From the NCBI GenBank assembly GCA_016931215.1, contig JAFGFD010000090.1:1-43253 (forward strand): a DNA stretch of 43,253 bases, in the 5' to 3' direction. Positions 9,449 through 35,719 of the stretch are shown one piece after another; positions within the stretch are counted from its first letter, which is position 1, and the number at the start of each line of letters is the position of its first letter. The translations under genes were made by a program, and so were the position numbers. The notes under the pieces are model-generated. The model was given only the letters and a program-made list of their open reading frames with translations. It had not been told where the DNA came from and made no database searches. This DNA is from Candidatus Omnitrophota bacterium. Lineage in GTDB: Bacteria > Omnitrophota > Gorgyraeia > JAHIPI01.

Positions 9449-9524
9449 GGGCCGCTAGCTCATCTGGCAGAGCACCGCCCTTTTAAGGCGGGTGTAGAAG
9501 GTTCGAGTCCTTCGCGGCTCACCA
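9449..9524 (+). tRNA. tRNA-Lys (anticodon UUU)
   Basis: Hand-folded cloverleaf: acceptor gggccgc/gcggctc (one G-U), D arm gctc/gagc, anticodon arm ccgcc-cTTTTaa-ggcgg, T arm gaagg-ttcgagt-ccttc, discriminator A, encoded CCA. Confidence 0.95.
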
Positions 9525-9706
9525 GCATTTTACTTTGTTGTGAGACGCCGGCTTGCTCGAAGTGAGGTTTCGCCGACGAGTAGGAGGAAAAGCGCATACT
9601 TCCTCGAATTGCAGAAGATAGCGACAGAAACCGAGTGGCCGACCCGAGTATCTTGGCGAACGAAGTGAGCCGAACGAGGGCGCCGAGTCCTTCGCGGCTC
9701 ACCAGC
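9525..9706 (+). repeat. tRNA-3'-flank element, copy K: ~157-nt non-coding insert plus an exact 23-nt copy of the tRNA-Lys 3' end
   Basis: 9684-9706 equals 9504-9526 (cgagtccttcgcggctcaccagc). The interior is homologous to 22061-22213. There is no credible ORF. Confidence 0.6.
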
Positions 9707-9769
9707 TATTTAGCCTATAGTCGATGGACTATGGGCAAAGGGTAGACCATATACATAAATATATAGCGC

Positions 9770-10186
9770 ATGAAACCATTCGAGATAGTGGATCATACAG
9801 CGGATATCAGCATAAAGGCATACGGCAAGAGCGAAAAAGAGCTTTTTGAAAATGCCGCTCGCGGTATGTTCAACATCGCCGCGGATCTGGAAGGCATCAC
9901 TACCTCAACCGAGCTTAATGTAAAAGTCAGCGCCCTCGACAAGGAAGAGCTGCTCGTCGAATGGCTGGACGAGCTCCTTTACAATTTCTACACCAAACAC
10001 ATAATATTTTGCGAATTTAACATTGTAGAACTCACCGATAAAAGCCTGAGCGCCAAAATAAAAGGTCGCTTCATAGGCGAAAACAAAAACCGCCTCAAAT
10101 CCGAGATAAAAGCGGCTACTCGCCACGGCTTGAATATCGTCAAAAAAGACGGCATCTATGAAGTGCAGATAGTATTTGACGTCTAG
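9770..10186 (+). CDS. Archease (RtcB activator/chaperone)
   Basis: 138 aa. N-terminal FEIVDHTADISIKAYG motif. Immediately upstream of rtcB. Confidence 0.85.
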   Translation: MKPFEIVDHTADISIKAYGKSEKELFENAARGMFNIAADLEGITTSTELNVKVSALDKEELLVEWLDELLYNFYTKHIIFCEFNIVELTDKSLSAKIKGRFIGENKNRLKSEIKAATRHGLNIVKKDGIYEVQIVFDV

Positions 10187-10194
10187 GAGGTTCG

Positions 10195-11655
10195 ATGGGC
10201 GGAGCATGGCAAGGGCCTCTGGAGAGAATCGATGATTACCGTTGGATGATCCCTAAATCATTCATGAACGGTATGAACGTCCCGGGAATCATTTACGCAG
10301 ACGATATTCTTATCAAAAGCATTAAGAACGATAATGCCCCTCAACAGGTAGCGAATGCAGCATGCCTTCCAGGAGTAGTGAAAAATTCCCTGGCGATGCC
10401 GGATATACATTGGGGATATGGTTTGCCTATAGGAGGTGTCATAGCTACCGACATAGAAGAGAATGGCGTAATAACGCCCGGCGGAGTCGGTTACGATATA
10501 AACTGTGGCGTAAGGCTTATCAGGAGCAATCTAACCGAGAAGGAAGTCAGGGCGAAGCTGGATGTGCTTGTTACGACGCTCTTTCACACTATTCCGGCGG
10601 GCGTCGGGTCCAAGAGCGACATAAAGGTAAGTGATCGAGACGAGAGAAGGATCATGACGACGGGCGCCAGCTGGGGAGTGGAAAACGGTTTCGGAGTTAA
10701 AGAGGATTTGGACCATACCGAAGAGAACGGATGCATGGATGGCGCCGATCCCGACAAGGTATCTGAAAGGGCATATGAGAGAGGCGTCCGACAATCGGGC
10801 ACACTAGGTTCAGGAAACCATTTCCTGGAGATACAAGTTGTAGATGAGATTTACGATGAGCCTGCGGCTAATCTTTTTGACTTGTCCCTCGGTAGCGTTA
10901 CTGTTATGATACATACAGGGAGCCGCGGATTTGGCCATCAAATATGCGATGATTACTCTAAGGGAATGGTCAGATGCCTTTCCAAATATAACATAAGTGT
11001 ACCTGACAGACAGCTTGCCTGTGCGCCTGTCAAATCTCCCGAAGGAAGAGACTACATAGCTGCGATGAAGTGCGCGGCGAATTACGCGTGGAACAACAGG
11101 CAGTGCCTGATGCACATGGTGAGGACGGTCTTTGAAAAGGTCTTCGGGTCGAGTCAAAAGAATCTGGGATTGACTCTCATATGGGACGTAGCTCACAACA
11201 TTGCGAAATTCGAGAGATATAAGATTGACGAAAAAGATAAGATGCTGTGTATACACAGGAAGGGTGCTACACGAGCTTTCGGGCCCGGCAACCCGGCAAT
11301 TCCGCATGAATACAGAGAGTATGGTCAGCCTGTCATAATACCAGGAGACATGGGAAGAAATTCCTACATCTTATTGGGAACAAAGAAGGCAGAGGAAGAA
11401 ACATTCGCCAGTACATGCCATGGTGCGGGTCGATGTCTATCAAGAAAGGAAGCGATGAGAAGGCATGACCGTAACACCCTCTTGAAAGAATTGGGGGCCA
11501 AGGGCATAAAGGTGATGGCGGTTGGAAAGGAGACCCTTGCTGAAGAGGCGCCGTACGCATATAAGAATGTAAACGAGGTTGTCAACGTAGTCGATAAGGC
11601 AGGCATTTCCAAAAAGGTCTGCAGGATGAAGCCAATAGGCGTAATAAAAGGATAA
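10195..11655 (+). CDS. rtcB: RNA 3'-phosphate/5'-OH ligase RtcB
   Basis: 486 aa. GGVGYDINCGVRL, GSGNHFLE, HTGSRGFGH, HRKGATRA and TCHGAGR motifs. Confidence 0.95.
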   Translation: MGGAWQGPLERIDDYRWMIPKSFMNGMNVPGIIYADDILIKSIKNDNAPQQVANAACLPGVVKNSLAMPDIHWGYGLPIGGVIATDIEENGVITPGGVGYDINCGVRLIRSNLTEKEVRAKLDVLVTTLFHTIPAGVGSKSDIKVSDRDERRIMTTGASWGVENGFGVKEDLDHTEENGCMDGADPDKVSERAYERGVRQSGTLGSGNHFLEIQVVDEIYDEPAANLFDLSLGSVTVMIHTGSRGFGHQICDDYSKGMVRCLSKYNISVPDRQLACAPVKSPEGRDYIAAMKCAANYAWNNRQCLMHMVRTVFEKVFGSSQKNLGLTLIWDVAHNIAKFERYKIDEKDKMLCIHRKGATRAFGPGNPAIPHEYREYGQPVIIPGDMGRNSYILLGTKKAEEETFASTCHGAGRCLSRKEAMRRHDRNTLLKELGAKGIKVMAVGKETLAEEAPYAYKNVNEVVNVVDKAGISKKVCRMKPIGVIKG

Positions 11656-11660
11656 AGCTT

Positions 11661-12935
11661 ATGTTGGATTTAAAATTCATTAGAGAAAATAGTGAACTTG
11701 TTAAAAAGGCCATGAAAGACAGAAATGTCAACCTGGATATAGACGAATTACTGAAACTCGACGGCAAAAGGAGAGAGTTGCTTAAAGAGGCCGAGAAGCT
11801 CAAGTACGAAAAGAACAAGATGTCCGAGGAAATTGGCAAAAAAATAGCGAAAAAGAATGATGTTAAAAATGAAAAAAGTCAAATAAAATCAATGTCCCAA
11901 AAAATAAGTGAATTTGATGAAAAAGTGGGTGATATTGATAAAAAAATGGTCAATTTGATGCTGATAATCCCAAATATACCCCACAAAAGCGTTCCAATTG
12001 GCAGTGAACAAGAGGCGAATAAAGTAGTTAGAACCTGGGGTAAAGAACCTAAGTTTGACTTTGAGCCAAGACACCATGTCGAACTTTGTGAGCTCCTCGA
12101 TATAATTGACCTTAAGAGGGCCTCTAAGATCGCAGGATCTTTTTTCATTTTGTATAAGGGGTTAGGTGCGCGCCTTGAGCGAGCCCTTATTAACTTCATG
12201 CTCGATCTTCATACAAAAGAGCACGGTTACATGGAGGTATTTCCGCCTTTTTTGGTCAATAGAAAGAGCATGACCGGAACCGGCCAACTGCCAAAATTGG
12301 AAGAAGATATGTATCGGCTCAAAGACGACGATTATTTCCTAATACCTACCGCGGAAGTCCCCGTGACGAATCTGCACAGAGATGAAGTCATTAACGAAGA
12401 CAAGCTCCCCATATATTATACAGCTTACACGGCATGTTTTAGAAGAGAAGCCGGTTCTTATGGGAAGGATACGAAGGGGTTGACAAGAGTACATCAATTT
12501 GACAAGGTCGAAATGGTTAAGTTTGTAAGACCGGAGACATCATATGATGAGCTTGAGTCCTTGGTTAAAAATGCGGAGAAGGTAATTCAGCTTCTTGATC
12601 TTCCATATCGGGTCACGCTACTTTCAACGCAGGGAATAAGCTTTGCCGCTTCAAAGTGTTACGACATAGAATTATGGGCAGCCGGTAGTAAAGCGCACCT
12701 TGAAGTATCCAGTTGCAGCAACTTCGAGGATTTTCAGGCTAGAAGGGCTAATATTAAGTATCGGCAGAAAAACGGAAAACTCGCCTATGTACATACGCTC
12801 AATGGCTCGGGGGTAGCGACCGCAAGGTTGCTTATCGCATTGATAGAGAACTATCAGACTAAGGACGGCACTGTCCTCATACCCAAAGCGCTTCAGCCAT
12901 ATATGGAAGGCTTAAAAGAGATTAAGCCGTTATGA
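11661..12935 (+). CDS. serS: Seryl-tRNA synthetase
   Basis: 424 aa. N-terminal coiled-coil arm (MLDLKFIRENSELVKKAM) and class II core motifs (FRREAGS, GSGVATARLLIALIENYQ). Confidence 0.95.
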   Translation: MLDLKFIRENSELVKKAMKDRNVNLDIDELLKLDGKRRELLKEAEKLKYEKNKMSEEIGKKIAKKNDVKNEKSQIKSMSQKISEFDEKVGDIDKKMVNLMLIIPNIPHKSVPIGSEQEANKVVRTWGKEPKFDFEPRHHVELCELLDIIDLKRASKIAGSFFILYKGLGARLERALINFMLDLHTKEHGYMEVFPPFLVNRKSMTGTGQLPKLEEDMYRLKDDDYFLIPTAEVPVTNLHRDEVINEDKLPIYYTAYTACFRREAGSYGKDTKGLTRVHQFDKVEMVKFVRPETSYDELESLVKNAEKVIQLLDLPYRVTLLSTQGISFAASKCYDIELWAAGSKAHLEVSSCSNFEDFQARRANIKYRQKNGKLAYVHTLNGSGVATARLLIALIENYQTKDGTVLIPKALQPYMEGLKEIKPL

Positions 12936-13606
12936 TACTGAAGACAATCAAATCAGTCTTAGGGATATTACTATTACCTGTAGTATTCGCCGTAGCAAGC
13001 TCTTTTTACGAACAGTTCGGATTTATAGATATCAATTTTACAAAAGGGCAGATATATTTTTTATGGGGCGTTACTGCATATTGCCTTTTCCAGCTTATCT
13101 TAATAAAGCCCGTCTACTTGTATGTCCTGGGCCACGAGACAGTGCACGTCCTGGCGACATGGTTGTGTCTCGGAAGGGTGACGAGGTTCCATGTCACTTC
13201 AAGAGGCGGCAGCGTCTCGACAACAAAGACCAATATCTTTATTAAATTGAGTCCTTATTTTATCCCGATATACGCCATTCTTATTACGGCAGCGTATTTT
13301 TTTATAATAAAGATGTTCCTATGGGGTTTTCTGGTTAGGCCTTATTATATGTTTTTGTTCGGAGCTACGCTATCCTTCCACATAATCATGACGATAGACA
13401 CTATAAAAGTTAAACAGCCCGATTTCGCGAAGGCGGGACATATTATGTCACTTGTTTTGATATTTGTAATCAATATGATAATTATTGCGGGGATACTGGG
13501 ACTTTTCTTTAATAGTTTTTCTTTTTTGTCTTTTTTACGCAGTTCATACTATTCTTCGGTCGATCTATACAGGACTATATTCATCCGGTTGTTTCAGTAT
13601 AAATAA
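12932..13606 (+). CDS. Polytopic membrane protein with a HExxH motif (putative membrane zincin, DUF3267-like)
   Basis: 224 aa, about 6 hydrophobic helices, GHETVHV motif. Its start overlaps the serS stop (ATGA). Confidence 0.5.
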   Translation: MILKTIKSVLGILLLPVVFAVASSFYEQFGFIDINFTKGQIYFLWGVTAYCLFQLILIKPVYLYVLGHETVHVLATWLCLGRVTRFHVTSRGGSVSTTKTNIFIKLSPYFIPIYAILITAAYFFIIKMFLWGFLVRPYYMFLFGATLSFHIIMTIDTIKVKQPDFAKAGHIMSLVLIFVINMIIIAGILGLFFNSFSFLSFLRSSYYSSVDLYRTIFIRLFQYK

Positions 13607-13663
13607 TTAGTGGTCCGTTTTCCGTTCCGAGAGGTTGATTTAGAAGAGGAGTTCTTTATACGT

Positions 13664-14350
13664 TCAAAAAAGATATTTTAATGCGGTAAAGATATATCTC
13701 AACCAGACCTTACTCAAGACAATTGCCGAAACACCCGTCTTTCTCGCGTATTCATGACTTGGGATTTCCTCTATCTTGAAACCAAGTTTAAGGGCCTTCA
13801 TCACCATCTCTTGTTCGATTGTGGTTATGTTCTCCCTTAGATTCAGCGTTTGTGCCATATTGGTCTTTATCGCCCTGAACCCATTTTGCACGTCTGTAAG
13901 TTTCTGTCGCCATCTTATGTTTATGATAAGGTTTATTATGACACTTCCAAGTAGTCGCAGGGTCTTTTCCATATCTCCCTGCAACTCGTCGCTGCCGCCT
14001 TTCCCTCGCGAAGCTATTACCATATCTGCCTTGCCGTCAGCTATGGGCTGTACAAGATGAGGTATATCTTTTGGATCGTGCGAACCGTCGGCGTCCATGA
14101 AGACTATAATATCACCCCGGGCCTTCTCTATGCCAAGCCTTATGGCGATACCTTTACCACGGCCGCTGTCCTGGCAGACTCTCGCGCCTTCATTTCTGGA
14201 TATCGCACGAGTGTCGTCCCCGGAAAGCCCATCTACAACGAGGATTTCATAAGCATACTTTTTTGCCTCTAAGATGATATTTCTTATGGTAGGCGCTTCA
14301 TTTTTGGCAGGTATCACCACTGATATGCGTGGTTTTTTTTCCTCGATCAT
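13664..14350 (-). CDS. GT2 glycosyltransferase (polyprenyl-phosphate sugar synthase type, DPM1/ArnC-like)
   Basis: 228 aa. ISVVIPAKNE, VVDGLSGDDT and FMDADGSHDP motifs. Confidence 0.8.
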   Translation of the reverse strand: MIEEKKPRISVVIPAKNEAPTIRNIILEAKKYAYEILVVDGLSGDDTRAISRNEGARVCQDSGRGKGIAIRLGIEKARGDIIVFMDADGSHDPKDIPHLVQPIADGKADMVIASRGKGGSDELQGDMEKTLRLLGSVIINLIINIRWRQKLTDVQNGFRAIKTNMAQTLNLRENITTIEQEMVMKALKLGFKIEEIPSHEYARKTGVSAIVLSKVWLRYIFTALKYLF

Positions 14351-14470
14351 GACAAGCCCGCTTATCTCTTCGCTATAATAATTTTTTACGGTTAAAATTT
14401 GATATCGTTGCTATTATATCAATTACCATTGGACGCTGCAACGAAAATATTCTGAAAAGAAAAAAATTTA

Positions 14471-14499
14471 TTGAGAAAAGGTGATTTAAGATGTATAAT
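14471..14499 (+). promoter_or_regulatory. Sigma70-type promoter candidate
   Basis: TTGAGA, 17 nt, TATAAT, about 100 nt upstream of the YHS-domain gene. Confidence 0.5.
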
Positions 14500-14596
14500 A
14501 ATTACACATTAGTATTATACATTTCTATTATGCGCCATATTAATAGCATTATCTCTTTGGACGGATAGATAGTTACAACAAAAGATGGAGGGCAGC

Positions 14597-15049
14597 ATGA
14601 CGAAGAGATTTGACCCAAAGGTTCTTTTTATCTGCTTGGTTTTCATGGCATTATCCTCAGGCAAGTCTTATTCGGTATCGGTCGATGAGGACGGTGTCCC
14701 TATAGCAATACAAGGTTATGACCCAGTCGCCTACCACACCGAGTATCACGCCACAAAAGGTTACAGCAGCGAATGCTATAAGTATAAGGACATGATGTGG
14801 TATTTCTGCAGTACCGCGAACAAGGAACTCTTCGTAAAAGACCCAGGGAGATATATGCCTGCCTATAACGGATATTGTGCCCATTGTATGAGTTTTAAGG
14901 GATTTAAAAAGCTTTCGGACCCCAATGTCTGGACGATCGAAGACGAAAGGTTATTTCTCTTTTCGGCGGAATACAAAAAAGAAACGTGGGGCAACAATGC
15001 GAAAAAGAATATCGAAAAAGGCGACAAACATTGGGAATCAATAAATTAA
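14597..15049 (+). CDS. Secreted YHS-domain protein
   Basis: Signal-like N-terminus, then GYDPVAYH....KG, YFCSTANKELFVKDPGRYMPAYNGYC and LFLFS motifs. ATG at 14597 sits 4 nt after ggaggg; the track start at 14585 is also possible. Confidence 0.65.
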   Translation: MTKRFDPKVLFICLVFMALSSGKSYSVSVDEDGVPIAIQGYDPVAYHTEYHATKGYSSECYKYKDMMWYFCSTANKELFVKDPGRYMPAYNGYCAHCMSFKGFKKLSDPNVWTIEDERLFLFSAEYKKETWGNNAKKNIEKGDKHWESIN

Positions 15050-15251
15050 TCTTTTAGCAGTTTCTATTCATGAAATTGTAACACCCATTCCTTGTCTAAT
15101 CCCCCTGGCTTTTTTATTCGATATTGTGATTGATTTTTTATATGATATCTGCTAATCTTAAACTGAAATATGTAACATATCAACAGCTTAAATGCCGTAA
15201 ATTCTGTTCTTTATTTTTGCTGAAGCGGGGAATTGAAAAATCTCGAGTTAA

Positions 15252-16775
15252 ATGAATCAGTATATAAAAGAACAAAAATCCATACGTAGATTAATACCTT
15301 CCTATTTTGTCCGCATAGCTTCTCTGCTAGTAATCTCATATGGGACTATAATCCGTTTGCACGAATATATAAGAAACCGTTCTCTTTGGTTGGACGAGGC
15401 CTTTGTAGCCCTCAATGTACTTGATAAGTCTATTTCCCAGCTCTTGACTCAGCCGTTCGACTATAGGCAGGCGGCTCCCGTCATGTACATTCTCTTGACG
15501 AAATTTTTGGTTTTGATATTTGGAAGCAGTGAATATGTATTGCGATTTATACCGTTATTAGCAGGCATCGCATCTATCTTCGTATTTTTTATTTTAGTGA
15601 AAAGACTGACTGGAGGAAAAGGCATTTTAATAGCTCTAATCTTCTTTTCGTTTTCAACCATGCTACTGCGCTATTCAGTAGAGGTAAAACAGTACTCGAC
15701 AGACGTTCTTATTTCTTTGTTGATATTGTACTGTGGACTCTCTTTTTTGTCGATTAGGTTCAATCTTTTAAGGGCACTTACTTTGGGGGCAATAGGCGCG
15801 TGCGCCGTATGGCTGAGCCATCCTTCAGCATTCATGCTTGCCGGACTAGGCTTAGCTTTATTATACCGTTCTTTTTCAAAAAAAGACTTAGGGCAGATAC
15901 ATTACTGGTGTCTCAGTATCTCCATCTGGGTTGTGAGCTTCGGTATTTTTTATTTCCTTTCATTGCGGCATATTGAGCATAATTCTGAATTGCGGTTATA
16001 CTGGGCGGAGTCTTTTATGCCCGTCCCACTGTCATTACAAGAAGCGAAACTTTTTTATAAATTATTTTTAGGCATGTTTTGGGAAGTGGGAGGGATGCGT
16101 TTTGATTTTTTAGGATTATTTCTCTTTCTACTAGGCTCACACTCGGTGTATAAAAGAGACAGGAAAGTAGCTATATTGTTATTGGCACCTCTTGTATTTA
16201 CTGTCATCGCATCTTTTATGCATAAATATCCCTTCAAGGGAAGGTTACTTTTATTTTACGCACCCGTTTTGTATATATTAGTGACTGAAGGATTGGTATT
16301 TTTTGTCGATAATAAATTATTGTTATCAAAAGCAATAGGGTCCGTTCTTATATGCGTAATGTTATGGCATCCTATCGTAATAGCGCCCAAGCACTTGTCT
16401 TCAAGCCTCTTCCATTCGGAGGAAATACGGCCCGCTTTAGAATACCTGAGGAGTCATTTTAAGGAAGGGGATGATATATACTTATATTATTCAACGTATT
16501 TCTGCTTTAAATACTATGCTGAAAATTATGGATTTGAGGATATCGATTATATCAAAGGTGTCCAGGGGACACACGATAGAGAAAAATACATACGCGATCT
16601 TTCGCGCTTAAAGGGAAGAGGAAGGGTTTGGTTTATATTCACACATGTGCAAAAGGATGAACGGGCTGAGACAAACGACGAAGAATACATAGTCACCCAT
16701 CTCGATACACTCGGGAAACAATCGGAACATATTCAATCAGACGGAGCCTCGCTCTATTTGTACGAGCTAAATTAG
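15252..16775 (+). CDS. GT-C fold membrane glycosyltransferase (GT39/GT83, ArnT/PMT-like)
   Basis: 507 aa. About 10 N-terminal TM helices, LWLDEAF acidic motif in the first loop, soluble C-terminal domain. Confidence 0.65.
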   Translation: MNQYIKEQKSIRRLIPSYFVRIASLLVISYGTIIRLHEYIRNRSLWLDEAFVALNVLDKSISQLLTQPFDYRQAAPVMYILLTKFLVLIFGSSEYVLRFIPLLAGIASIFVFFILVKRLTGGKGILIALIFFSFSTMLLRYSVEVKQYSTDVLISLLILYCGLSFLSIRFNLLRALTLGAIGACAVWLSHPSAFMLAGLGLALLYRSFSKKDLGQIHYWCLSISIWVVSFGIFYFLSLRHIEHNSELRLYWAESFMPVPLSLQEAKLFYKLFLGMFWEVGGMRFDFLGLFLFLLGSHSVYKRDRKVAILLLAPLVFTVIASFMHKYPFKGRLLLFYAPVLYILVTEGLVFFVDNKLLLSKAIGSVLICVMLWHPIVIAPKHLSSSLFHSEEIRPALEYLRSHFKEGDDIYLYYSTYFCFKYYAENYGFEDIDYIKGVQGTHDREKYIRDLSRLKGRGRVWFIFTHVQKDERAETNDEEYIVTHLDTLGKQSEHIQSDGASLYLYELN

Positions 16776-16815
16776 GTAAAGCGATAAATGAGGGCCACTG
16801 CAGGTATTTTTAGAC

Positions 16816-18273
16816 TTAATTTACTAGATTTTCTATTCTGCGCATTCTATATATAATAAGCCTACTGGTTTCATTAACAATGGGGGAATAATAGTCCCAT
16901 ACTATCTTGCCGTCCTTTGTGACTTCAAATACATGCCCTTTGTTACTTTCCGTAATCAATGTATTTCCGTTGTCAAGCCTTTGGCACGATCCCTGAGTTT
17001 TTGAAAACAATGACTGAGGAGGCGTAGCCATATACTGCCATACAATCGATTCTTTTTTAGGTTCTACCTCGATGACGCGCGAATAATCCCTGTGTTTACC
17101 GTTTTCAAAAAATAGAACATTGCCGTTCTTTAAAAAAGAAGCTGCGTGCAATCCGTCGAATTTTTTATTTAATTTCCATACTACTTTTCCGTCGGCAGCA
17201 TTAAATATCAAAAGATCGCTTGTGAAAAAGCTCGAGACCAATATATCACCTTTTTCACATAGGCCATCTATATCCCTCTCGGCTGATTCGACCGAATTCG
17301 TATGATATACGTCAAACTTTAAATCCTCTTGTGTCAACAGGTGGCTTCTTTGAACGTCATTATCGAAAAAGCAGTTATCTATAACGCCTTTTTCGATTAT
17401 TTTCCAAACAAGATTAGGATTTAACATAAAATGGTACAGTTTAATTATTGTTGGGACTGAGATCACATCTTTATATTGGCTTAGAAGAGAGATCTCATTT
17501 TTAACATCGCCGTCTTTTGATAAAACCGTTACGTATTCGACTTTTATCGGTACGGGTAGGCCGCAGAGTAAAATTATCTCCCACTTATATGTAAGTACAA
17601 ATATGTCACCGTTATCCGCTGTGTCAGCGTCGTGATGGGCCGCGATATTTATAACCCATCTTATGTTGGATTCCCAATCCAACATATACAGTTTATCGTA
17701 GTCGGCCTGAAGTATGAGATTACCATCCTTGAGAAATTCGGCAAATCCGATTTTTGATATATCTTCATTTTTTACGCTCCACTCATTTATGACGTTACCT
17801 TCCATGTCTATAAGATAAACTTTGGGTTCTTCGTTATTTGCGACGAAGAGGTTATATCCTTTATAGCTAAGATTCTCGTCATGAAAAGTTACGGCCTCTT
17901 TACTGTCGGTTTCACGAATCGGGGTTTTGCATAAATACGGCAGGCTCATGAGACGGTCTTCCGGGGATATTTTGCAAAAAACATAGCTATTCATGCGGCA
18001 AACACAGACTATAACGCATGCCAGGATAAAAAAGATTAATGCCGCGTGAAAATATCTATTTCCGTTCTTTTTAGCGATTAATTTCCTGAGCAATAATACG
18101 TACAGTAATTTGCATAAGCCATATATAATCAAAACGCAAAAAAGGAGAGATAGAACAAAAAACCAGATGATGTATAGGAAAATATTATTATTGATTACTA
18201 TGAATATCGCTGCTAAAAACAACGCACCTAATATTATTAATATCTTTTTCAAGGCCGAATCCCTGTTTTGCAA
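16816..18273 (-). CDS. Membrane-anchored arylsulfotransferase (ASST)-like beta-propeller protein
   Basis: 485 aa. N-terminal TM helices, then repeated NGN/DGN..L blades: AAHHDADTADNGDIFV, DVYHTNSVE, GDILVSSF, LHAASFLKNGNVLFFENG, CQRLDNGNTLITES..GHVFEVTKDGKIVW. Confidence 0.5.
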   Translation of the reverse strand: MQNRDSALKKILIILGALFLAAIFIVINNNIFLYIIWFFVLSLLFCVLIIYGLCKLLYVLLLRKLIAKKNGNRYFHAALIFFILACVIVCVCRMNSYVFCKISPEDRLMSLPYLCKTPIRETDSKEAVTFHDENLSYKGYNLFVANNEEPKVYLIDMEGNVINEWSVKNEDISKIGFAEFLKDGNLILQADYDKLYMLDWESNIRWVINIAAHHDADTADNGDIFVLTYKWEIILLCGLPVPIKVEYVTVLSKDGDVKNEISLLSQYKDVISVPTIIKLYHFMLNPNLVWKIIEKGVIDNCFFDNDVQRSHLLTQEDLKFDVYHTNSVESAERDIDGLCEKGDILVSSFFTSDLLIFNAADGKVVWKLNKKFDGLHAASFLKNGNVLFFENGKHRDYSRVIEVEPKKESIVWQYMATPPQSLFSKTQGSCQRLDNGNTLITESNKGHVFEVTKDGKIVWDYYSPIVNETSRLIIYRMRRIENLVN

Positions 18274-18320
18274 TAGGTGTATGAGACCATATATTACCGT
18301 TTTTCATCGGAGGGGGAAAA

Positions 18321-19001
18321 TCATTGCATATTAAGTTTAAATATATAAGCGATAAATAGAATACCATTTCGAATAGAGATCTTACTTCTACCCTTTATTC
18401 TGCCCTTGCAGACATATGGCAATTCGATAATTCTTTTACTCGCACATTTAATGAGTATTGCAGGCAGGCATTTAGGGCCGAATGGCTCTATATGCATATC
18501 TTCTATAATTTTTTTTCTCAATACAAAGTATCCAGACAGAGGATCCCTTATTTTTTTAAGATTCGGCAAAAATAAGTGAGTGATAAAAATGGCAAATTTT
18601 GAAAGGAACATCCTCTTCTTGGGCCAATTGAGCAGCACTGCTTTGTCGACATAGCGGCTTCCGATGACTACGTCATATTTGTTTAGGTAGTCATAAAATA
18701 CGGATAAGTACTCCGCGGGATGTTGAAAATCGGCATTTAAAGTAGCTACTATATCTCCTCCCGATTCCTTTATTCCATCCATTACAGCTGACGCCAAACC
18801 TCTCTTTCTGAGCCTGTGCAATACTTTAATATTTTTATATCTGTTCTTGAGAGACTCGGCTATTTTACCCGTTCCGTCCGGGCTGCCGTCATCCACGATT
18901 ATTATTTCATGATCGACTTTATCTAACGATTTAGCGACATCGCGGATAAAATCATCAAGATTTTCGGATTCGTTATATGTAGGTATTATTATTGAGAGCA
19001 T
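18321..19001 (-). CDS. GT2 polyprenyl-phosphate mannose/glycose synthase-like glycosyltransferase
   Basis: 226 aa. LSIIIPTYNESENL, IIIVDDGSPDGT and LNADFQHP motifs. Confidence 0.85.
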   Translation of the reverse strand: MLSIIIPTYNESENLDDFIRDVAKSLDKVDHEIIIVDDGSPDGTGKIAESLKNRYKNIKVLHRLRKRGLASAVMDGIKESGGDIVATLNADFQHPAEYLSVFYDYLNKYDVVIGSRYVDKAVLLNWPKKRMFLSKFAIFITHLFLPNLKKIRDPLSGYFVLRKKIIEDMHIEPFGPKCLPAILIKCASKRIIELPYVCKGRIKGRSKISIRNGILFIAYIFKLNMQ

Positions 19002-19013
19002 ACGGATCAGTTT

Positions 19014-20000
19014 TTATCGCTGTCTTGAGAAATAAAGCTGATGGGCCTGAAGTTCGTATCTATCTTTCGTAGAGCGAATGTATTCAATAGTTTTAGCGAT
19101 ACCGTCCTTGACGGTTATTCTCGGATCAAATCCCAGCACCTTTTTTTGCTTAGTGACATCGGCAAGGAGTCTTAAGGCGTATATATTTATCGGAACAGGA
19201 ACGTATATGGGCTCCAAAGAAGTCCCAAGGCGATCGTTTATCATTTGAACCACCTCGTTGAAACTGGTTTCTTTGCCGGTGCCAAGGTTTATTATTTCGT
19301 TCTCAAAATTAAGATCATTTGCCCTGACCAAGGCCTCTACTACATCGTCGACGAAGATAAAATCCCTCGTCTGCGTTCCGTCTCCCCATATAATAGGTCT
19401 CTGCCGTTCGAGCATTGCCCAGGCAAACAGAGATATTACGTTCGCATAACCTTCTTTAGTCTCTTCACCGTAACCAAAGACGCTAAAAGGCCTTACGCCC
19501 ATGCACCTGATGCCGTATCTTTTGAAATAATGTCCGGCGGCCTCTTCGTTAAATTTCTTTGTCAAAGACTTTAAATCAGGGGGGTCTATATTCATGTCTT
19601 CACTGTATGGCAGGTCGTTACCTTCATATACGGCACTTGTGCTTAAATAGATTATCCTTTTTATGCCTTCTTGCCTCATGCCTTCCAAGACGTTTATGAA
19701 CCCTTTAATAGTTATATCCGAACTTTCAACCGGATCTTCCTCAAACATCAAGAAAGATGAAGGTGCCGCCAGATGATAGACCATATCCATCCCGGACAGC
19801 GCCTGCCTTACGTCATCGTAGTCTCTTATATCTATTTCAACTACGGCAGATTCAATGCCGCTACCTAGCAAACGATCCCGACTGCCGATTTTAAAATTGT
19901 CCAAAACTTTTATATTATGGCCGGTTGACAATAAAACCTTAGCGAGCCTTCTTCCTATAAAACCGCCACCCCCGGTTATCAGTATGTTCATTATTTTCAC
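19014..20000 (-). CDS. NAD-dependent nucleotide-sugar epimerase/dehydratase (extended SDR)
   Basis: 328 aa. ILITGGGGFIGRRL glycine-rich motif. Length and layout resemble GalE/UXS. Confidence 0.85.
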   Translation of the reverse strand: MKIMNILITGGGGFIGRRLAKVLLSTGHNIKVLDNFKIGSRDRLLGSGIESAVVEIDIRDYDDVRQALSGMDMVYHLAAPSSFLMFEEDPVESSDITIKGFINVLEGMRQEGIKRIIYLSTSAVYEGNDLPYSEDMNIDPPDLKSLTKKFNEEAAGHYFKRYGIRCMGVRPFSVFGYGEETKEGYANVISLFAWAMLERQRPIIWGDGTQTRDFIFVDDVVEALVRANDLNFENEIINLGTGKETSFNEVVQMINDRLGTSLEPIYVPVPINIYALRLLADVTKQKKVLGFDPRITVKDGIAKTIEYIRSTKDRYELQAHQLYFSRQR

Positions 20001-21436
20001 CCCTCTCTTTTCTTATAGAGATACAGTATAAGTGTCTGGTCAAGCGCATTGTATTCTCCCGAATATACATTATAGTATACTACATCAAATATCTTATCGA
20101 TTTTTTTATCCGTGAACATCCCAGGTTTTCCCTGTATAAACCATAGCCTTTCGTAATTTTTTAAGTCGACGTTATCGCGGAGGATAAACCAATTTGCCTT
20201 GCTGCTAAAATTGGAGTAGTGATCAAAAAGATACATCTGCCTTTTGTCGAGAAAAAAAACTGCGTCGTTGACGTTTGCATTGCCGTCAAAATAACTTGCC
20301 GCGGACCTGTAATCGGCGTTCCTGTTTGTCGTAAAATATTGGAATAGACTAACGGTAGAAAAGGAGAAAATAAGACAGACACCTATGACCTTGATGTATC
20401 TTTTTTTGACGGTCAATAATCCTACGGCGGTTGCTATGTAGAAAGCGGTAGAGGAACCTATCGCATACTTGGGTCGGAACCTATCCGGTGATAGTATTAA
20501 AAAAACGAGAAGAAAAGGTATGATAAGCCATGTCAATAGAATCAACGCATTTTCTTTTTTCAAATTCCCTTCAAGGACATCCGCGCCTCTATTTCTACTA
20601 TTGAGGAAAAAATTAAGCACTGCTATCAGAGATATCATCATTAAGAAATAAGAGCGGGAAGACCACTGGAAGGCAGTCTCCGCTATGTCGCTGAACCGTC
20701 GCACGGGAAATATAAAAAAGTAAGCCTGCCCCGAGTATATATGATTGATTAAATAGGAGAACCTTTTTGAGGTTGCAAAAAAAGACAAAAGTGGCAAAAG
20801 CAATAATGTCAACAGAGATAGCTGTATAAACCAGAACTTTAGCTTTTTAGTTTCAAGCCGCCTATATTTAATAGAATAAAGAACAAGAAAAATAACTTGA
20901 GCCATAATGACAAATAACCCTATGCAATGTGTATAAAAAAGCAATACGCTGGACAAGATATAACCTATTATCGTATATTTGGCTCTGAATGATAGCAATC
21001 GTATGAAAAAGTAGAAGGATGACAGAGTCAGCATGGAGACCAAGCTGTACATCCTGGCTTCCTGGGAATAACTTATGTGGAAGGAGGAGATGGACAATAA
21101 AAGGGCACTCAATAGACCGATTTCTTTATTAAAAATAATCTCGCCCACTTTGTAGATTATCAATATGGCGAGAACGCCGAATATGGCAGACAGAAATCTT
21201 ATAGAATACTCCGTATTACCGAATATACCGATCCAGTACCGCAATAGAATGTAGTAAAGAGGGCCATGAAAGAAAGAAGCGCGCTCTTTTATAATTTCAT
21301 TAATTCCCGACTCGGCGGTGTGTATTGCAATACCTTCGTCCGTCCATAGACTTTCCGAACCTAAATGATAAAGCCTAAGAAACAATCCAATTAAAAAAAT
21401 AGAGGTCAAAACTAAAATGTGAAGATGACGTCTCAT
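19997..21436 (-). CDS. GT-C fold membrane glycosyltransferase (GT39/ArnT-like)
   Basis: 479 aa. SLWTDEGIAIH first-loop motif, about 11 TM helices. Overlaps the downstream epimerase start by 4 nt. Confidence 0.7.
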   Translation of the reverse strand: MRRHLHILVLTSIFLIGLFLRLYHLGSESLWTDEGIAIHTAESGINEIIKERASFFHGPLYYILLRYWIGIFGNTEYSIRFLSAIFGVLAILIIYKVGEIIFNKEIGLLSALLLSISSFHISYSQEARMYSLVSMLTLSSFYFFIRLLSFRAKYTIIGYILSSVLLFYTHCIGLFVIMAQVIFLVLYSIKYRRLETKKLKFWFIQLSLLTLLLLPLLSFFATSKRFSYLINHIYSGQAYFFIFPVRRFSDIAETAFQWSSRSYFLMMISLIAVLNFFLNSRNRGADVLEGNLKKENALILLTWLIIPFLLVFLILSPDRFRPKYAIGSSTAFYIATAVGLLTVKKRYIKVIGVCLIFSFSTVSLFQYFTTNRNADYRSAASYFDGNANVNDAVFFLDKRQMYLFDHYSNFSSKANWFILRDNVDLKNYERLWFIQGKPGMFTDKKIDKIFDVVYYNVYSGEYNALDQTLILYLYKKREG

Positions 21437-21687
21437 ATTTATCTATGACATTAAACTATCTTGACAAGTTCTCTGTAACTGTTCTGCGGAGTAAGCTTTT
21501 TACTTTACTATTCTATTATATATGGATGTCAAAGGCAACGAGTTTTAATTTTGACGATTTTATATAAAAAAGTTTAAGACGGGCGCTTTCATGAAGTAAA
21601 AAATCTTGATATCCGATGAGCCGATATAAATGTCATGTGCTGTCAAAATAACCGTTATAACGGAAAAATAAGGAGAAACTTACTTCT

Positions 21688-21715
21688 TTACAACATTAAA
21701 AAAATCTGGTATTAT
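21688..21715 (+). promoter_or_regulatory. Sigma70-type promoter candidate for tRNA-Ser(UGA)
   Basis: TTACAA, 16 nt, TATTAT, with an extended -10 (tggtattat). Lies ~90 nt upstream of the tRNA. Confidence 0.45.
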
Positions 21716-21804
21716 GGACACGGATTTCACGATGGAAGAAGTATATGTGCCCCACACTTAGTAATACCCGGCCTTGTAAATAGTGTGGTTGAGTTACAGC
21801 TATC

Positions 21805-21895
21805 GGAGGAGTGGCTGAGCGGTTGAAAGCGGCGGTCTTGAAAACCGTTAGACTCTTTACGGGTCTCAGGGGTTCGAATCCTCTCTCCTCCGCCA
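21805..21895 (+). tRNA. tRNA-Ser (anticodon UGA)
   Basis: Acceptor ggaggag/ctcctcc, anticodon arm gcggt-cTTGAaa-accgt, long variable arm, T arm agggg-ttcgaat-cctct, discriminator G, encoded CCA. Confidence 0.95.
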
Positions 21896-22060
21896 GGATT
21901 TAAAATTGCAGCGGAGTTTTAGGATTCGAAGCGAGCGAACGCGCGACGGGCAGGAGCGATGAGGCCGTAAGTCGAAGACCGACCGCAGTGAGCGAGGGGA
22001 GGTTACGCAAGCGAGCTCCGCGAGCTGTAGTAACCGAATCCTCTCTCCTCCGCCAGGATT
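21896..22060 (+). repeat. tRNA-3'-flank element, copy S-A (divergent), ending in an exact 26-nt copy of the tRNA-Ser 3' end
   Basis: 22035-22060 equals 21875-21900 (cgaatcctctctcctccgccaggatt). The 5' half shares ttcgaa(g/t)(c/t)gag..cg(c)cgac...(t/c)aggag with copies S-B and K. Confidence 0.55.
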
Positions 22061-22232
22061 ATTACAAGATGCGGAGATGCTGAATTCGAATTGAGCCGGC
22101 GCCGACAAATAGGAGGAAAAGCGCGTACTTCTAAGTAAAACCCCAGATAGCGACAGCCGGCGATTGGCCGACCCGAACACCCTGGGGCCGAAGTTTAGGC
22201 CGGGGTGAGGGCGCCGAATCCTCTCCCCACTT
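22061..22232 (+). repeat. tRNA-3'-flank element, copy S-B, ending in a decayed copy of the tRNA-Ser 3' end
   Basis: Collinear with copy K (cgccgac..taggaggaaaagcgc.tacttc, agatagcgacag, ggccgacccga, gagggcgcc). The terminal ccgaatcctctc (22214-22225) matches the tRNA T-loop/T-stem and then diverges. The period from the previous copy is 180 nt, as at tRNA-Lys. Confidence 0.6.
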
Positions 22233-22291
22233 TATATTTGGTGGTTTTTATAATTATATATTAAAAGAAAGCGGAAGACTAAGGGAAAAAA

Positions 22292-24614: not shown

Positions 24615-24704
24615 GGAGAGGTGCGAGAGCGGTTGAATCGACCTGCTTGGAGAGCAGGCGTAGCCGCAAGGCTACCCAGGGTTCGAATCCCTGCCTCTCC
24701 GCCA
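24615..24704 (+). tRNA. tRNA-Ser (anticodon GGA)
   Basis: Acceptor ggagagg/cctctcc, anticodon arm cctgc-tTGGAga-gcagg, long variable arm (gtagcc gcaa ggctac), T arm caggg-ttcgaat-ccctg, encoded CCA. Confidence 0.95.
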
Positions 24705-24849
24705 GTTGGGAAATGTCTTTGTTGGCTCGCCCTCTGCGAGGGTTCGCCAGCCGATTTTAAGCGCAAATTGGAATTTTTTATCTTTCAAAATGAAGTTCGA
24801 GCCGATATTTTTTCAGGTTCTTTGGCAGTTTTTCAATCCGAAAGGGTCG

Positions 24850-24896
24850 CTTCCGCAGGCGGGCGGAAGGGGGGTTTGGGGGGAATTCCGCCCGCC
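24850..24896 (+). promoter_or_regulatory. GC-rich, mutually exclusive hairpins (terminator or switch candidate)
   Basis: cttccgc (24850-56) can pair with gcggaag (24863-69). Alternatively ggcgggcggaa (24858-68) can pair with ttccgcccgcc (24886-96), enclosing a G6-T3-G6 loop. Confidence 0.35.
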
Positions 24897-24992
24897 CTAC
24901 AAATTTTGGGCGAAATCTGTTCGAATTTTTTGAAAGCACACCGCCATCCTTTTCGAGAATATACAACTCGAACCTCATCAATCAGTTAATCC

Positions 24993-29687: not shown

Positions 29688-29774
29688 GGATTAGTGCCCA
29701 AATTGTGCCCACCTGACTCAGTAACACCTGTGTACATCTGCAAACAAATGTAAACATCCGCACAGCTTAATTTC

Positions 29775-29813
29775 TTGACAATAAAAGAGTTATGTTATAA
29801 GCTGTTTATCGAC
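29775..29813 (+). promoter_or_regulatory. Conserved promoter-like motif, copy 1
   Basis: cTTGACA, 15 nt, TATAAG (or 17 nt, TAAGCT), followed by ctgtttatcgac. Lies ~80 nt upstream of the lipoprotein/tspO pair. Confidence 0.45.
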
Positions 29814-29890
29814 GGGGAGTAAGGATTTATACTTGATTGACTACCTGCCTCTACGCCAGATTTTGAAATATTAAATCCCTATATTATCTT

Positions 29891-30643: not shown

Positions 30644-30906
30644 TCAAGCACTTTTTAAGTTAGAACACAGCTCTTTGTTAATATAGTTTTCATGGTACTG
30701 TTTAGGCGTCATATTGCCAAGCGACTGGTGCGGATAGTCCGTGTTATACGCCTCGATCCATTTGTTTAAAGCGACTTCAAAGTCGAACGGGTTATCCCAT
30801 TCATAAGGCCATACCAAGTCCTCTTTGATGGTGCGCATGACACGTTCGGTATCCGAATTGCCTTTGGGATTTGACCATGTGGTAAATATCTGCTTAATAC
30901 CAAAAA
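30644..30906 (-). pseudogene. Remnant of an IS3/IS481-type DDE transposase (C-terminal part of the rve integrase core only)
   Basis: ...NPKGNSDTERVMRTIKEDLVW....F..ALNKWIEAYNTDYPHQSLGNMTPKQY matches the end of rve-domain transposases. The upstream part of the 154-aa ORF has no transposase character. No N-terminal HTH domain or inverted repeats were seen. Confidence 0.65.
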
Positions 30907-31214
30907 GCGAGGTGATATCAGAAGCCTTGTTTTCATTCCTGAAGGAGCAAAATCTAATAAAAGCTGTAAAATAAGTCAGTCTTTTATACAGCTCGCAGAT
31001 TAAAACCCTCAATATTAGTCCGCCCGTTAGATAATATAGATCAGACCTATAAGCGTAAATTTGACTTGTTTTTTTATGTAACGCTATATGTAATAAGCGG
31101 TTACGCAAATTAATCCATACTTTTCTTGTAACCGTTAAGATTTTAATGTATACTATATTTAAGAAGGGCAGAGACTAAAGAGTTCTGTCCATTTTTTATT
31201 ATAAGGGGTATAAC

Positions 31215-31586: not shown

Positions 31587-31700
31587 TCTACCAATAACAG
31601 ATCTTTGCCTATAATATCGATATCTCTAAAATCAAAAAAGCATAGCCATTCTAACGACAAAATAACACCACTTGTCCCTGGATATCCGTGATGTAATGCC

Positions 31701-31739
31701 TTGACATTAAACAGATTATGATATACTCTATTTATCGAC
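31701..31739 (+). promoter_or_regulatory. Conserved promoter-like motif, copy 2
   Basis: cTTGACA, 15 nt, TATACT, then ctatttatcgac. Lies ~75 nt upstream of the autotransporter start. Confidence 0.45.
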
Positions 31740-31813
31740 GCTGGCCTGGTAGATTATGTCGGCTGTTTTTGTCGATAGTCCTCTATTACCTTTAACGAGA
31801 CAGGAAACGTTAA

Positions 31814-35303: not shown

Positions 35304-35504
35304 ATTTAACCCCCTTTGTTTTACGGACCGTTTTCTTAACGATTAAACAAATGAAACTAGAAAAAGTTCCGCAAAAATATAGAAATATTTCGTTTTCTGG
35401 GATTGACCGGGTTTTATACATGTCGCTATGGCCAAATTTGCCTTGCCCGAGAAAGAAAAAACCTCCTATGCCAATAAACGCCGATATCCATATGCCTTAA
35501 TATC

Positions 35505-35543
35505 TTGACATGAAAGGAGTTGTATTATAAGCTGTTTATTAAC
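35505..35543 (+). promoter_or_regulatory. Conserved promoter-like motif, copy 3
   Basis: cTTGACA, 15 nt, TATAAG, then ctgtttattaac. 24 of 27 nt are identical to copy 1 across gagtt.t.ttataagctgtttat. Lies ~175 nt upstream of the GT2-methyltransferase gene. Confidence 0.45.
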
Positions 35544-35719
35544 AATATATTGCCCATTTGCTCCTTATGAACGGTCTGTTTTTTCCTTGTCAAGCTTGAC
35601 CTCAGAAGATCAGAGTTTGTCAGATTGGATATACGGACTGGCAACGACTGAAAAGACACGGCCCAAACGTAACAGGCCGGGGGCATAGATTTCATATAAT
35701 TAATCTTACGGGTAAAATC

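Follow-up and report, generated by a model that had tools for sequence, protein, structure and literature searches.

An apparently undescribed family of folded non-coding modules behind tRNA genes, stacked at tRNA-Ser(UGA) in an Omnitrophota genome

Introduction

A direct repeat running from the T-loop to the 3' end of a tRNA gene, the use of transfer-messenger RNA (tmRNA) genes and tandem accretion are the signature of islands inserted by tyrosine integrases. Here, a 43,253-nt stretch of DNA from Candidatus Omnitrophota bacterium (GenBank assembly GCA_016931215.1, contig JAFGFD010000090.1, positions 1 to 43,253 of the forward strand), hereafter called the window, was analysed. Behind its tRNA-Ser(UGA) gene lie two small non-coding modules in tandem, S-A and S-B, and a third one, the Lys element, follows tRNA-Lys(UUU). 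All three are copies of an apparently undescribed, widespread family. With integrase-borne islands and cis-mobilisable elements (CIMEs) the modules share the repeat of the tRNA 3' part from the T-loop, the live tRNA rebuilt by the insert, tmRNA hosts and tandem accretion with the older elements distal. They differ in their size (~130–250 nt), in having no integrase or other gene (none is linked to them in 126 listed loci) and in a single core that is found at 36 isoacceptor types among the copies listed. Moreover, they combine a covarying single-strand fold with a target-complementary arm, unlike duplex att arm sites with protein-binding repeats. The tRNA 3' segment is repeated from the crossover loop onwards, as in such islands (from C56 in 76 of 81 cases), and no cognate integrase was found in the window or in the loci compared.

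MITEs (miniature inverted-repeat transposable elements) are likewise small, non-coding and multi-copy, with terminal inverted repeats (arm versus tail in the modules) and spread within a genome without an encoded enzyme. In the modules, however, the inverted repeats reproduce the target and differ from one target to the next, and the duplication measures 19–166 nt with a fixed left edge instead of being a fixed, short target-site duplication. Terminal inverted repeats shared between copies, together with a duplication of fixed length, are therefore not a property of the modules. We know of no parent insertion sequence for them.

Integron cassettes with their attC sites and CTX-phage-type sites resemble the modules in that a recombination partner is defined by the fold of one strand, the units are small and promoter-less, insertion is serial with the newest unit proximal, and mobilisation occurs in trans, which is putative for the modules. 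Unlike cassettes, the modules have no integron integrase, attI platform or GTTRRRY core; they target the tRNA T-loop and fold into a multi-helix junction with invariant purine-rich joiners. Their junction reads GGTT|CGAAT rather than GTTRRRY, and the integrase is absent from the window.

An internal target-complementary segment that co-varies with the target is also known from the exon- and intron-binding sites (EBS/IBS) of group II introns and from the bridge or seek RNAs of IS110/IS1111 elements. The module arm is a candidate guide of this kind, which may pair only with the adjacent repeat copy. The modules are 5–20 times smaller than such guided elements and lack an intron-encoded protein, an IS110-type recombinase and ribozyme domains. 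At E-values up to 10, no Rfam match to a group II intron falls on the modules, the only match being a separate intron beside one compared locus (L099; loci compared are given as L numbers). The modules stand alone between tRNA and host genes, and the window holds no IS110/IS1111-type gene. Finally, the Mauriceville and Varkud mitochondrial retroplasmids of Neurospora carry a fused tRNA 3' end including CCA, and their integration uses and duplicates homology, but these are eukaryotic organellar replicons of kilobase size that encode their own reverse transcriptase, whereas none is linked to the modules.

Since the modules lack the defining features of each known family, they are placed as a variant of the tRNA-targeting integrative or miniature element theme. 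By analogy, they would act most like a cargo-less tRNA integrative element (CIME) or an integron cassette with a folded attachment site. No catalogued family explains them, and a full-text literature search found no description of such elements.

Results and discussion

Repeat structure of the tRNA-Ser(UGA) locus

The tRNA-Ser(UGA) gene (21805–21895, plus strand, as are all features of this locus; ARAGORN; Rfam tRNA, 57.7 bits) is intact and encodes its CCA. The part from C56 in the T-loop to CCA, together with the following GGATT, forms the first copy of a 26-nt repeat within the live tRNA (DR1, 21875–21900, CGAATCCTCTCTCCTCCGCCAGGATT). As the original prediction stated, this sequence recurs exactly, at 26 of 26 positions, 160 nt downstream (DR2, 22035–22060); an exact 26-mer excludes chance. 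DR2 is a displaced tRNA tail and at the same time the 3' strand of helix P1 of S-A. A decayed third copy (DR3, 22215–22226) was also correctly predicted: it begins 180 nt after DR2, retains 11 nt (CGAATCCTCTC) and has diverged in the remainder. S-A and S-B, the segments between the copies, are protein-less, ~135–155 nt long each, and have a G+C content of 55–58% compared to ~37% in the surroundings. A 104-aa open reading frame (ORF) on the minus strand (21866–22180) was rejected as spurious.

The homology that had been noted between the 5' parts of S-A and S-B amounts to 76% identity over 62 nt, the repeat included. S-B is indeed collinear with the Lys element, at 83% identity over 46 nt and 78% over 41 nt. 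The host of the latter is tRNA-Lys(UUU) (9449–9524, plus strand; ARAGORN and Rfam), and the element itself (type B, 9525–9683, plus strand) comprises a leader with the motif GTGAG (9540–9544), the arm CTCGAA (9556–9561) and a core (9562–9683). The displaced tRNA-Lys 3' end that follows (C56 to CCA plus GC, 9684–9706, plus strand) equals 9504–9526 at 23 of 23 positions, with the same 180-nt period.

Within S-A, a leader motif GCGGAG (called Y', 21911–21916) is antisense to CTCCGC of the tRNA acceptor end; longer Y' arms occur elsewhere in the family. Next comes the 5' arm X' (AGGATTCGAA, 21921–21930), antisense to the T-loop and the 3' strand of the T-stem (TTCGAATCCT), which forms the closing helix P1 with 22035–22042. 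The type-A core (21931–22034) starts with GCGA and the 5' strand of P1b (GCGAAC, 21935–21940), followed by the P2/P3 region with the GGCCGTAAGTCGAAGACC hairpin, the 3' strand of P1b (GTGAGC, 21988–21993), GAGGGGAG (21994–22001) and the P4 hairpin GTTAC...GTAAC (22002–22034). S-B has the same leader motif GCGGAG (Y', 22071–22076) and an X' arm (GAATTCGAA, 22082–22090) with one mismatch to the Ser T-arm. Its type-B core (22091–22214) consists of GAG, P1b (CCGGC/GCCGG), a GCCGAC..GGAGG hairpin, AAAAG, a variable hairpin, GATAGCGACAG, TGGCCGACC and a terminal domain ending in GAGGGCGC.

The outer copy had been read as a hairpin that could terminate the whole unit. It does fold, as GGGGTGAGG (22202–22210) with CCTCTCCCC (22220–22228), takes in DR3 and has ACTTTATATTT as its tail, with a T-rich tract after it. 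However, the terminator scan instead picks a smaller hairpin at 22227–22244 with the T tract TTTTTATAAT (22227–22254 in total), which is the sole terminator-like site that the scan gives from tRNA-Ser(UGA) to the next gene. The Lys element has an equivalent of the terminal hairpin (9665–9702) without a T tract, so the hairpin (22202–22228) is a built-in feature of subtype B and would not be merely a terminator. Upstream of tRNA-Ser(UGA), a consensus scan gave a promoter-like site (TTTACA-17-TATTAT with TG, 21687–21715), which is the likely start of a transcript predicted to span the tRNA and both modules. Both modules fall downstream of this promoter-like site and upstream of the only terminator-like one, so their transcription, as a structured 3' trailer, is probable as well.

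Module family and hosts

Across the family, the layout from 5' to 3' is the live tRNA, a leader, X' (sometimes with Y'), a folded core in which five helices covary and a second tRNA copy from C56 to the 3' end; X' pairs with this repeated tail to give the closing helix P1. The module is non-coding and measures ~115–135 nt, or 135–160 nt with its leader. On the tRNA-sense strand, type A reads leader (0–322 nt, median ~30), X' (antisense to T54–N63 or further), GCGA, P1b 5' strand, P2 hairpin (CCGA-C/G ... G/C-GAGG), AAAAG, P3 hairpin, P1b 3' strand, GAGGGGAG and P4 hairpin (NNUAC GCAG [inner stem] CGWAGUANN), after which C56 of the tail follows without a spacer. The joiners GAAGCGA and GAGGGGAG are invariant and purine-rich. 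In type B the 5' half is kept and the part from GAGGGGAG to P4 is replaced by GAGUGGCCGACC...GAGGGCGCC, including the terminal hairpin that pairs with the tail.

Three functional readings were set aside. A small ORF or peptide is contradicted by length differences between copies that are not multiples of three and by the pairing of GGAGG in P2. A hammerhead-like core in S-A (CGATGAGG...GAAGAC), read by eye, lacks the CUGANGA motif. As for a tRNA intron or split tRNA, the proximal copy is already a complete tRNA, and neither a bulge-helix-bulge signal nor an endonuclease was seen.

A search with the type-A pattern (the 3' domain GAGGGGAG NN TACGCAG ... CGWAGKR; the matches listed represent 120 loci) yielded at least 126 unique copies. 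Phyla and classes among these listed matches are Omnitrophota, the WWE3 lineage of the Candidate Phyla Radiation (CPR), Spirochaetia, Desulfobacterota (delta-proteobacteria), Bdellovibrionota, Oligoflexia, Elusimicrobia, Planctomycetota, FCPU426, Acidobacteriota and Verrucomicrobiota. Eighty-nine of the 126 copies lie 68–420 nt behind a tRNA on the same strand, representing the 36 isoacceptor types, and in 62 of these 89 the next 16 nt after the module are a perfect repeat of the tRNA tail. At least five further type-A copies follow a tmRNA. Type B was retrieved with a pattern matching S-B and the Lys element; its ~24 copies belong nearly all to Omnitrophota and use ten isoacceptor types (nine amino-acid specificities) as well as tmRNA. 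When the tRNAs of 80 related RtcB loci were checked for a second copy of their own tail downstream, more cases came to light. One of these, behind tRNA-Ser(UGA) of another Omnitrophota genome (L070), is closely related to S-A, and the 18-mer GGCCGTAAGTCGAAGACC of S-A recurs in 14 more Omnitrophota copies, behind Arg, Val, Ser, Met and Pro tRNAs. S-A and S-B are thus related, as had been proposed, but they are subtypes A and B of one widespread family rather than merely local relatives. An origin from phages or plasmids was rejected: no module match was found in viral contigs nor, by BLAST, in phage and plasmid collections.

Beside one type-B module (L097, minus strand), a ~550-nt G+C-rich non-coding stretch lies upstream (~2620–3160 of the reverse complement). 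It ends in ...GGAGCCA and gave no Rfam or ARAGORN match. At least three decayed tail copies (AGTCCTCGCGG.., AGTCCGAGCGGG.., TTTCCGAGCGG..) lie downstream at ~3300–3480 of the reverse complement, and similar '...GGGGAGCCA' ends occur in L082, L091 and L099.

Target-matched arm

The X' arm follows the tRNA behind which the module lies. Counted from T54, the exact antisense match with the own tRNA has a median of 11 nt and reaches at least 9 nt in 77 of the 89 tRNA-linked type-A copies listed, compared to other tRNAs, with which 78% of the same arms show no match and ~11% reach 9 nt. All four common T-loop variants (TTCGAAT, TTCAAAT, TTCAAGT and TTCGAGT) are mirrored in the arms, as are T-stem bases beyond the loop. 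In the window, S-A carries AGGATTCGAA and GCGGAG, S-B carries GAATTCGAA and GCGGAG, and the CTCGAA and GTGAG of the Lys element match TTCGAG and CTCAC of tRNA-Lys. The arm is imperfect in some copies (S-B and L084) and is extended to 18–23 nt in seven cases; in L164 it is a perfect 24-nt antisense of G53–A76, stopping at the complement of the terminal A. Where proximal and distal tails differ, the arm usually fits the live tRNA better, as in L104 (19 versus 9 nt), L119 (21 versus 0) and L164 (23 versus 0). Most arm switches from one tRNA to another need 2–4 changes.

Such an arm could be taken as a guide. In the strongest form of this idea, which we regard as rather unlikely, the module is a protein-less, RNA-autonomous mobile element whose core is catalytic or recruits a recombinase and whose ~10-nt arm programs the attack on the T-loop, by a nucleic-acid-guided or short interspersed nuclear element (SINE)-like route. 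If the guided reading is true, retargeting to any tRNA would take a change of ~10 nt.

Fold and possible RNA function

The fold was assessed on 51 aligned type-A copies with a six-helix model, against 500 shuffles and slid partners. Standard pairs occupy 76.3% of the cells, compared to 60.4% in shuffles (0 of 500 as high) and 29.5–40.2% with slid partners. Cells changed on both sides number 298 (118 in shuffles, 62–93 with slid partners), and the covariation score is 0.370 (0.141 and 0.07–0.09, respectively), with both-side change in 30 of 37 pairs. Compensatory changes beyond shuffled and slid controls are the generic mark of a structured RNA, and they are present here. A large share of the cells without a standard pair follows a system: about half of the sequences have tandem G.A/A.G where others have C-G, G-C, U-A or A-U, in P1b, P2 and inner P4. 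Within P1 such a G.A substitution (X' ...GGAYGAGAA opposite CGARU) is seen in several independent copies, indicating that P1 is a helix under selection and not a mere copying scar. At one P4 position, 41 copies have U-A and 10 have U.G; as this U.G would be a C.A mismatch on the other strand, it is the tRNA-sense strand that folds. The folded molecule would be RNA or single-stranded DNA of that strand. RNAalifold alone recovers P1, part of P2, and P4. In Rfam 15, searched at gathering and permissive thresholds (E up to 10) with the window and 16 related loci, only tRNAs were matched and the modules were not; a weak sX4 match (34.8 bits; threshold 70) is due to the tRNA part.

A fold of this type raises the possibility that the modules are primarily a cellular non-coding RNA domain, i.e. 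a 3' trailer or small RNA with a ...NCCA end and a role for tRNA or tmRNA (processing, stability, quality control, decoy and repair have been considered), and that their spread is a slow by-product of duplication and gene conversion. We see this as possible, though not likely. It agrees with the compensatory changes kept across many phyla, with the tandem G.A motifs, which are non-canonical and typical of functional RNAs, and with P1 staying helical even through G.A substitutions. Most copies are predicted to be co-transcribed with their tRNA, given the median leader of ~30 nt, the terminators in only 17 of 75 family leaders and, in the window, no terminator before 22227. In L104, L119 and L164, moreover, the arm has kept its match to the live tRNA despite decay of the distal copy, and the Lys copy lies directly upstream of archease-RtcB. 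However, the modules are patchy, with most orthologous tRNA sites empty, so no essential function is tied to a given tRNA. Near-identical copies at different tRNAs of one genome imply active spread, and tandem stacking with decayed tails resembles the dynamics of a parasite. As for RtcB, tRNA-Lys precedes archease-RtcB in 27 of 78 related loci, mostly without a module, so it is the tRNA, not the module, that accounts for the adjacency. A cellular RNA role therefore fits all but the patchy, parasite-like distribution, and it may coexist with mobility.

Insertion at the T-loop

We consider it probable that the modules are a mobile non-coding family which inserts at tRNA and tmRNA genes through a T-loop crossover with a copy that carries a tRNA tail, and that S-A and S-B are a stack built in two steps. 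Insertion itself is best seen in related genomes. In related Omnitrophota the gene order is conserved as tRNA-Ser(UGA), Na/Pi transporter, PhoU, small ORF, tRNA-Ser(GGA), and the gap from tRNA-Ser(UGA) to the transporter is 37 nt in L239 and 80 nt in L234–L236, compared to 396 nt in the window (approximately 56 + 160 + 180). Similarly, tRNA-Lys and RtcB are 409–490 nt apart in 17 related loci and 671 nt (491 + 180) in the window. Spread within genomes is recent: one WWE3 metagenome-assembled genome (MAG) has nearly identical cores behind Thr, Leu, Met and Asp tRNAs, and CAZLUT01 has a shared GGUAAGG variant behind Met, Pro, Leu and other tRNAs. Empty orthologous loci and near-identical copies at different tRNAs together identify the modules as insertions. 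Stacks of two or more modules, sometimes of mixed types, also occur at tRNAs and tmRNA in L086, L095, L098, L142, L169, L175 and L232.

The geometry of the repeats is equally regular. Of 81 cases, 76 have C56 (T-loop 55|56) as their left edge; ahead of it stands TT on the tRNA side and the P4 stem on the module side. A subfamily centred on WWE3 has its edge one base earlier (T55). Repeat length has its mode at 21–22 nt (CCA or one base beyond) and ranges from 19 to 166 nt, a spread that excludes a target-site duplication of fixed stagger. In L143 the repeat comprises the 21-nt tail and 145 nt of native flank, through the terminator, and in L142 a 91-nt repeat of tail, leader and X' flanks two different cores; both would follow from recombination of a circle at any point of the shared sequence. 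The combination of a constant left and a variable right edge is the pattern of a single crossover between the chromosome and a circular molecule that shares a block with it. Among repeats with intact bodies, CCA is present in both copies in 48, in neither in 12, in the proximal copy only in 5 and in the distal copy only in 0. This asymmetry suggests that the tail on the live tRNA is the incoming one and the distal copy the displaced original.

Insertion by T-loop crossover, our leading guess, would then proceed as follows. An element copy with the order tail, leader, X', core, probably circular, would meet a chromosomal tRNA gene, and a crossover would take place in or at T-loop 55|56. The live tRNA would be rebuilt from the tail of the element and the old tail pushed distally. 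A trans-acting enzyme may read the folded strand, in which the duplex-like P1 helix would present the sequence of the target; most likely, it is the folded tRNA-sense strand, including the target-matching P1, that the trans-acting machinery recognises. Because the target is regenerated, a second element can enter, which gives a stack with the newer S-A proximal and the older S-B distal. The two modules are of different subtypes, which argues for two insertions and against local duplication, and the perfect second and decayed third repeat fit a newer S-A, with the outermost S-B probably oldest. The serial insertion claimed in the original prediction is thereby backed by empty orthologous loci, stacks elsewhere and the CCA asymmetry, but the boundary is T-loop 55|56 and not the tRNA 3' end; the outward displacement of older copies is borne out by distal copies being the decayed ones and by the five proximal-only CCA cases against none in reverse. 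A DNA crossover accounts for the C56 edge, the variable right edge, the CCA asymmetry, tmRNA use, target regeneration and stacking.

Several points weigh against this account. It leaves the rewriting of arm and tail for a new tRNA unexplained, and the combination of fixed left and variable right edge could also come from template switching or an RNA route. No recombinase or integrase is linked to the family in the window or in the 126 listed loci, including the cognate enzyme that the original prediction had suggested looking for. That the fold is strongly conserved across phyla may reflect a cellular RNA function instead of mobility, and single-sequence folding energies are no better than those of shuffles, so the structural case rests on comparative data. 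The empty sites are those of other species (flanking protein 77–79% identical), not circular or excised forms or polymorphism within a population. Lastly, the tandem order in the window is without independent assembly support.

This last point bears on the reading that the tandem is a mis-joining of repeats during assembly, e.g. a collapse or expansion between the Ser and Lys elements, which is extremely unlikely. Short-read contigs of the same run (SRR13394437; L001 and L214) do break exactly at these repeats, ending at window position 22175 and in tRNA T-arms. On the other hand, they agree with the window at 100% identity in the Lys element and in a stretch comprising the 3' part of S-B and the third repeat. 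The sequences are thus corroborated, and it is the tandem order that lacks an independent assembly. Furthermore, S-A and S-B are different subtypes with unique sequence on either side of each repeat, the S-B leader has the Ser-specific GCGGAG motif, and the tandem architecture recurs in unrelated assemblies. We conclude that the modules are not an artefact. No close strains of the window organism were found in JGI metagenome scans, and look-ups with exact proteins gave contigs of one run only.

The RNA route mentioned above would make X' a splint or guide on the tRNA, with module RNA joined to tRNA nucleotides 56–76 either by ligation or through a reverse transcriptase, which would begin at the tRNA CCA and make a jump at the T-loop; the chimera would be turned into DNA and recombine via its captured tail, in a SINE-like or retroplasmid-like cycle. 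The repeat most often ends at the mature CCA (28 of 81 at 0 or +1), in L143 it ends at the U-tract of the native terminator, i.e. at the end of a primary transcript, and CCA is proximal-only in 5 cases with no reverse case, all as this route would have it. The L164 arm, a perfect copy of G53–A76, is like a cDNA of mature tRNA, and perfect 24-nt arms of this kind may point to a copying step. Hosts would be all RNAs that have a T-arm and CCA, among them tmRNA, and a group II intron, with its reverse transcriptase family, adjoins one copy (L099). Nevertheless, we judge RNA-mediated mobility unlikely: the modules have no linked reverse transcriptase, CCA is missing from both repeat copies at 12 loci, and the 1-nt shift of the left boundary between subfamilies (T55 in WWE3) indicates that the element, rather than a modification block in the tRNA, determines this boundary. 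All features cited for the RNA route also fit a DNA crossover with an element-borne tRNA tail.

If the family is as it appears, the tRNA and tmRNA genes of many poorly studied phyla carry a common, uncatalogued passenger. For annotation, it explains G+C-rich blocks, partial tRNAs and spurious ORFs behind tRNAs, where short-read assemblies break. One core at 36 isoacceptor types without a linked enzyme calls for either a trans-acting, fold-reading recombinase or a nucleic-acid-guided mechanism; either one, if true, would amount to a novel mode of tRNA-gene targeting, possibly a programmable one. With regard to tRNA biology, the tRNA-like NCCA tail and the predicted co-transcription may affect tRNA 3' processing or mimic tRNA ends.

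Other inserts and genes at the tRNA hot spots

Genes associated with the modules bear on whether these could be inert, attP-only leftovers of integrase-borne islands that have lost their cargo and are no longer mobile. By analogy, the repeat from T-loop to 3' end, the tmRNA use and the tandem accretion would be those of tyrosine-integrase islands, and two loci carry cargo genes. In L110, fragments of ParA and Phage_integrase as well as AbiEi/AbiEii lie between tRNA and module, and in L109, with the tRNA end out of range, defence-like genes lie upstream of the module. However, at least 96 of the 126 listed copies are cargo-less compared to 1–3 with cargo, and random deletion remnants would not keep a covarying fold, a target-matched arm and near-identical copies at different tRNAs. 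In L110, a decayed extra tail copy stands between the island and the module leader, which marks the island as an independent, later insertion in the same tRNA. The leftover reading is accordingly very unlikely, and the L110 integrase was rejected as the cognate enzyme; a tblastn search with it gave no other match in the loci compared.

No recurrent neighbour gene was seen at the module loci. Among the first downstream ORFs across loci, a single recombinase-like match was found (L181), whose protein looks like a large serine recombinase, and it was not recurrent.

In these genomes, the T-loops of tRNAs clearly form a hot spot for insertions in general. L011 (3217–3418), L086, L174 and L224 hold small non-coding inserts of a second family behind tRNAs, unrelated to the modules; these have the motif GGGGGTTTTAGGGGGAA...CCCCCTATCGGCG and are flanked by a tRNA-tail repeat which is longer and takes in the entire T-loop. 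The L086 insert is stacked with a type-A module. Another insert of 360 nt lies behind tRNA-Ser(UGA) in L024 (7612–7990), encodes an 82-aa GIY-YIG protein (Pfam, 7.8e-15) and is flanked by a 16-nt tail repeat; it looks like a free-standing insert of the homing-endonuclease type at the same hot spot. The group II intron of L099 is represented by its 5' end (1–54, minus strand; Rfam group-II-D1D4-3, 47.5 bits), just past the terminator after the displaced tail. In the relative L237, a large serine recombinase gene (4663–5576; Recombinase and Zn_ribbon_recom domains) abuts or overlaps the 3' end of tRNA-Ser(GGA), another sign that tRNA-Ser genes serve as integration sites.

Other features of the window

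The window is an ordinary stretch of chromosome, with rpsB, tsf, a pyrH-like gene, frr, tRNA-Lys, archease, RtcB, SerRS and glycosyltransferases, followed by tRNA-Ser(UGA), the Na/Pi transporter, PhoU, tRNA-Ser(GGA) and a DEAD-box helicase. RtcB and other window proteins are closest to those of Candidatus Omnitrophota MAGs (best 74%). The order tRNA-Lys, archease, RtcB, SerRS (9449–12935) is conserved, with the Lys element wedged between tRNA and archease, and no terminator is predicted between these two. A functional tie of the modules to RtcB and archease was not supported, since this order is common without a module and the neighbours of the other copies are unrelated.

Near the window elements no integrase or transposase was found, the only such gene of the window being a 154-aa ORF (30644–31108, minus strand) whose product carries an integrase-core domain (rve_3, 6.5e-11). 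This ORF probably represents part of an IS3-like transposase, and nothing evident ties it to the tRNA elements.

A G+C-rich non-coding block of ~285 nt (24705–24990) lies behind tRNA-Ser(GGA), with a G-run palindrome (GGGCGGAAGGGGGGTTTGGGGGGAATTCCGCCCGCCC) and T-arm-like fragments (GGTTCGCCAGCC, GTTCGAGCCGAT and TGTTCGAATTT). It showed no similarity to any locus compared, and no such block is present in the 120 nt read behind tRNA-Ser(GGA) in L234 and L239. The block may be a decayed insert of another type, and the ORF at 24621–24989 is probably spurious.

An intergenic motif of 47–71 nt recurs at 29739–29814, 31694–31740 and 35469–35544 (and 8503–8528). It contains promoter-like boxes (TTGACA ... 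TATAAG/TATACT), ends in TTTATCGACG and may, judging from these boxes, be a shared promoter or operator. A 214-nt direct repeat (1069–1282 and 1531–1744; 82% identical, 462-nt spacing) is an internal protein repeat of a 608-aa ORF (172–1998) with an InlB B-repeat-like (Flg_new_2) domain. Finally, ~8 kb of glycosyltransferase, epimerase and PMT-family genes (13607–21800) separate a 224-aa ORF (12932–13606) from tRNA-Ser(UGA), and these two are adjacent in two relatives (L234/L239).

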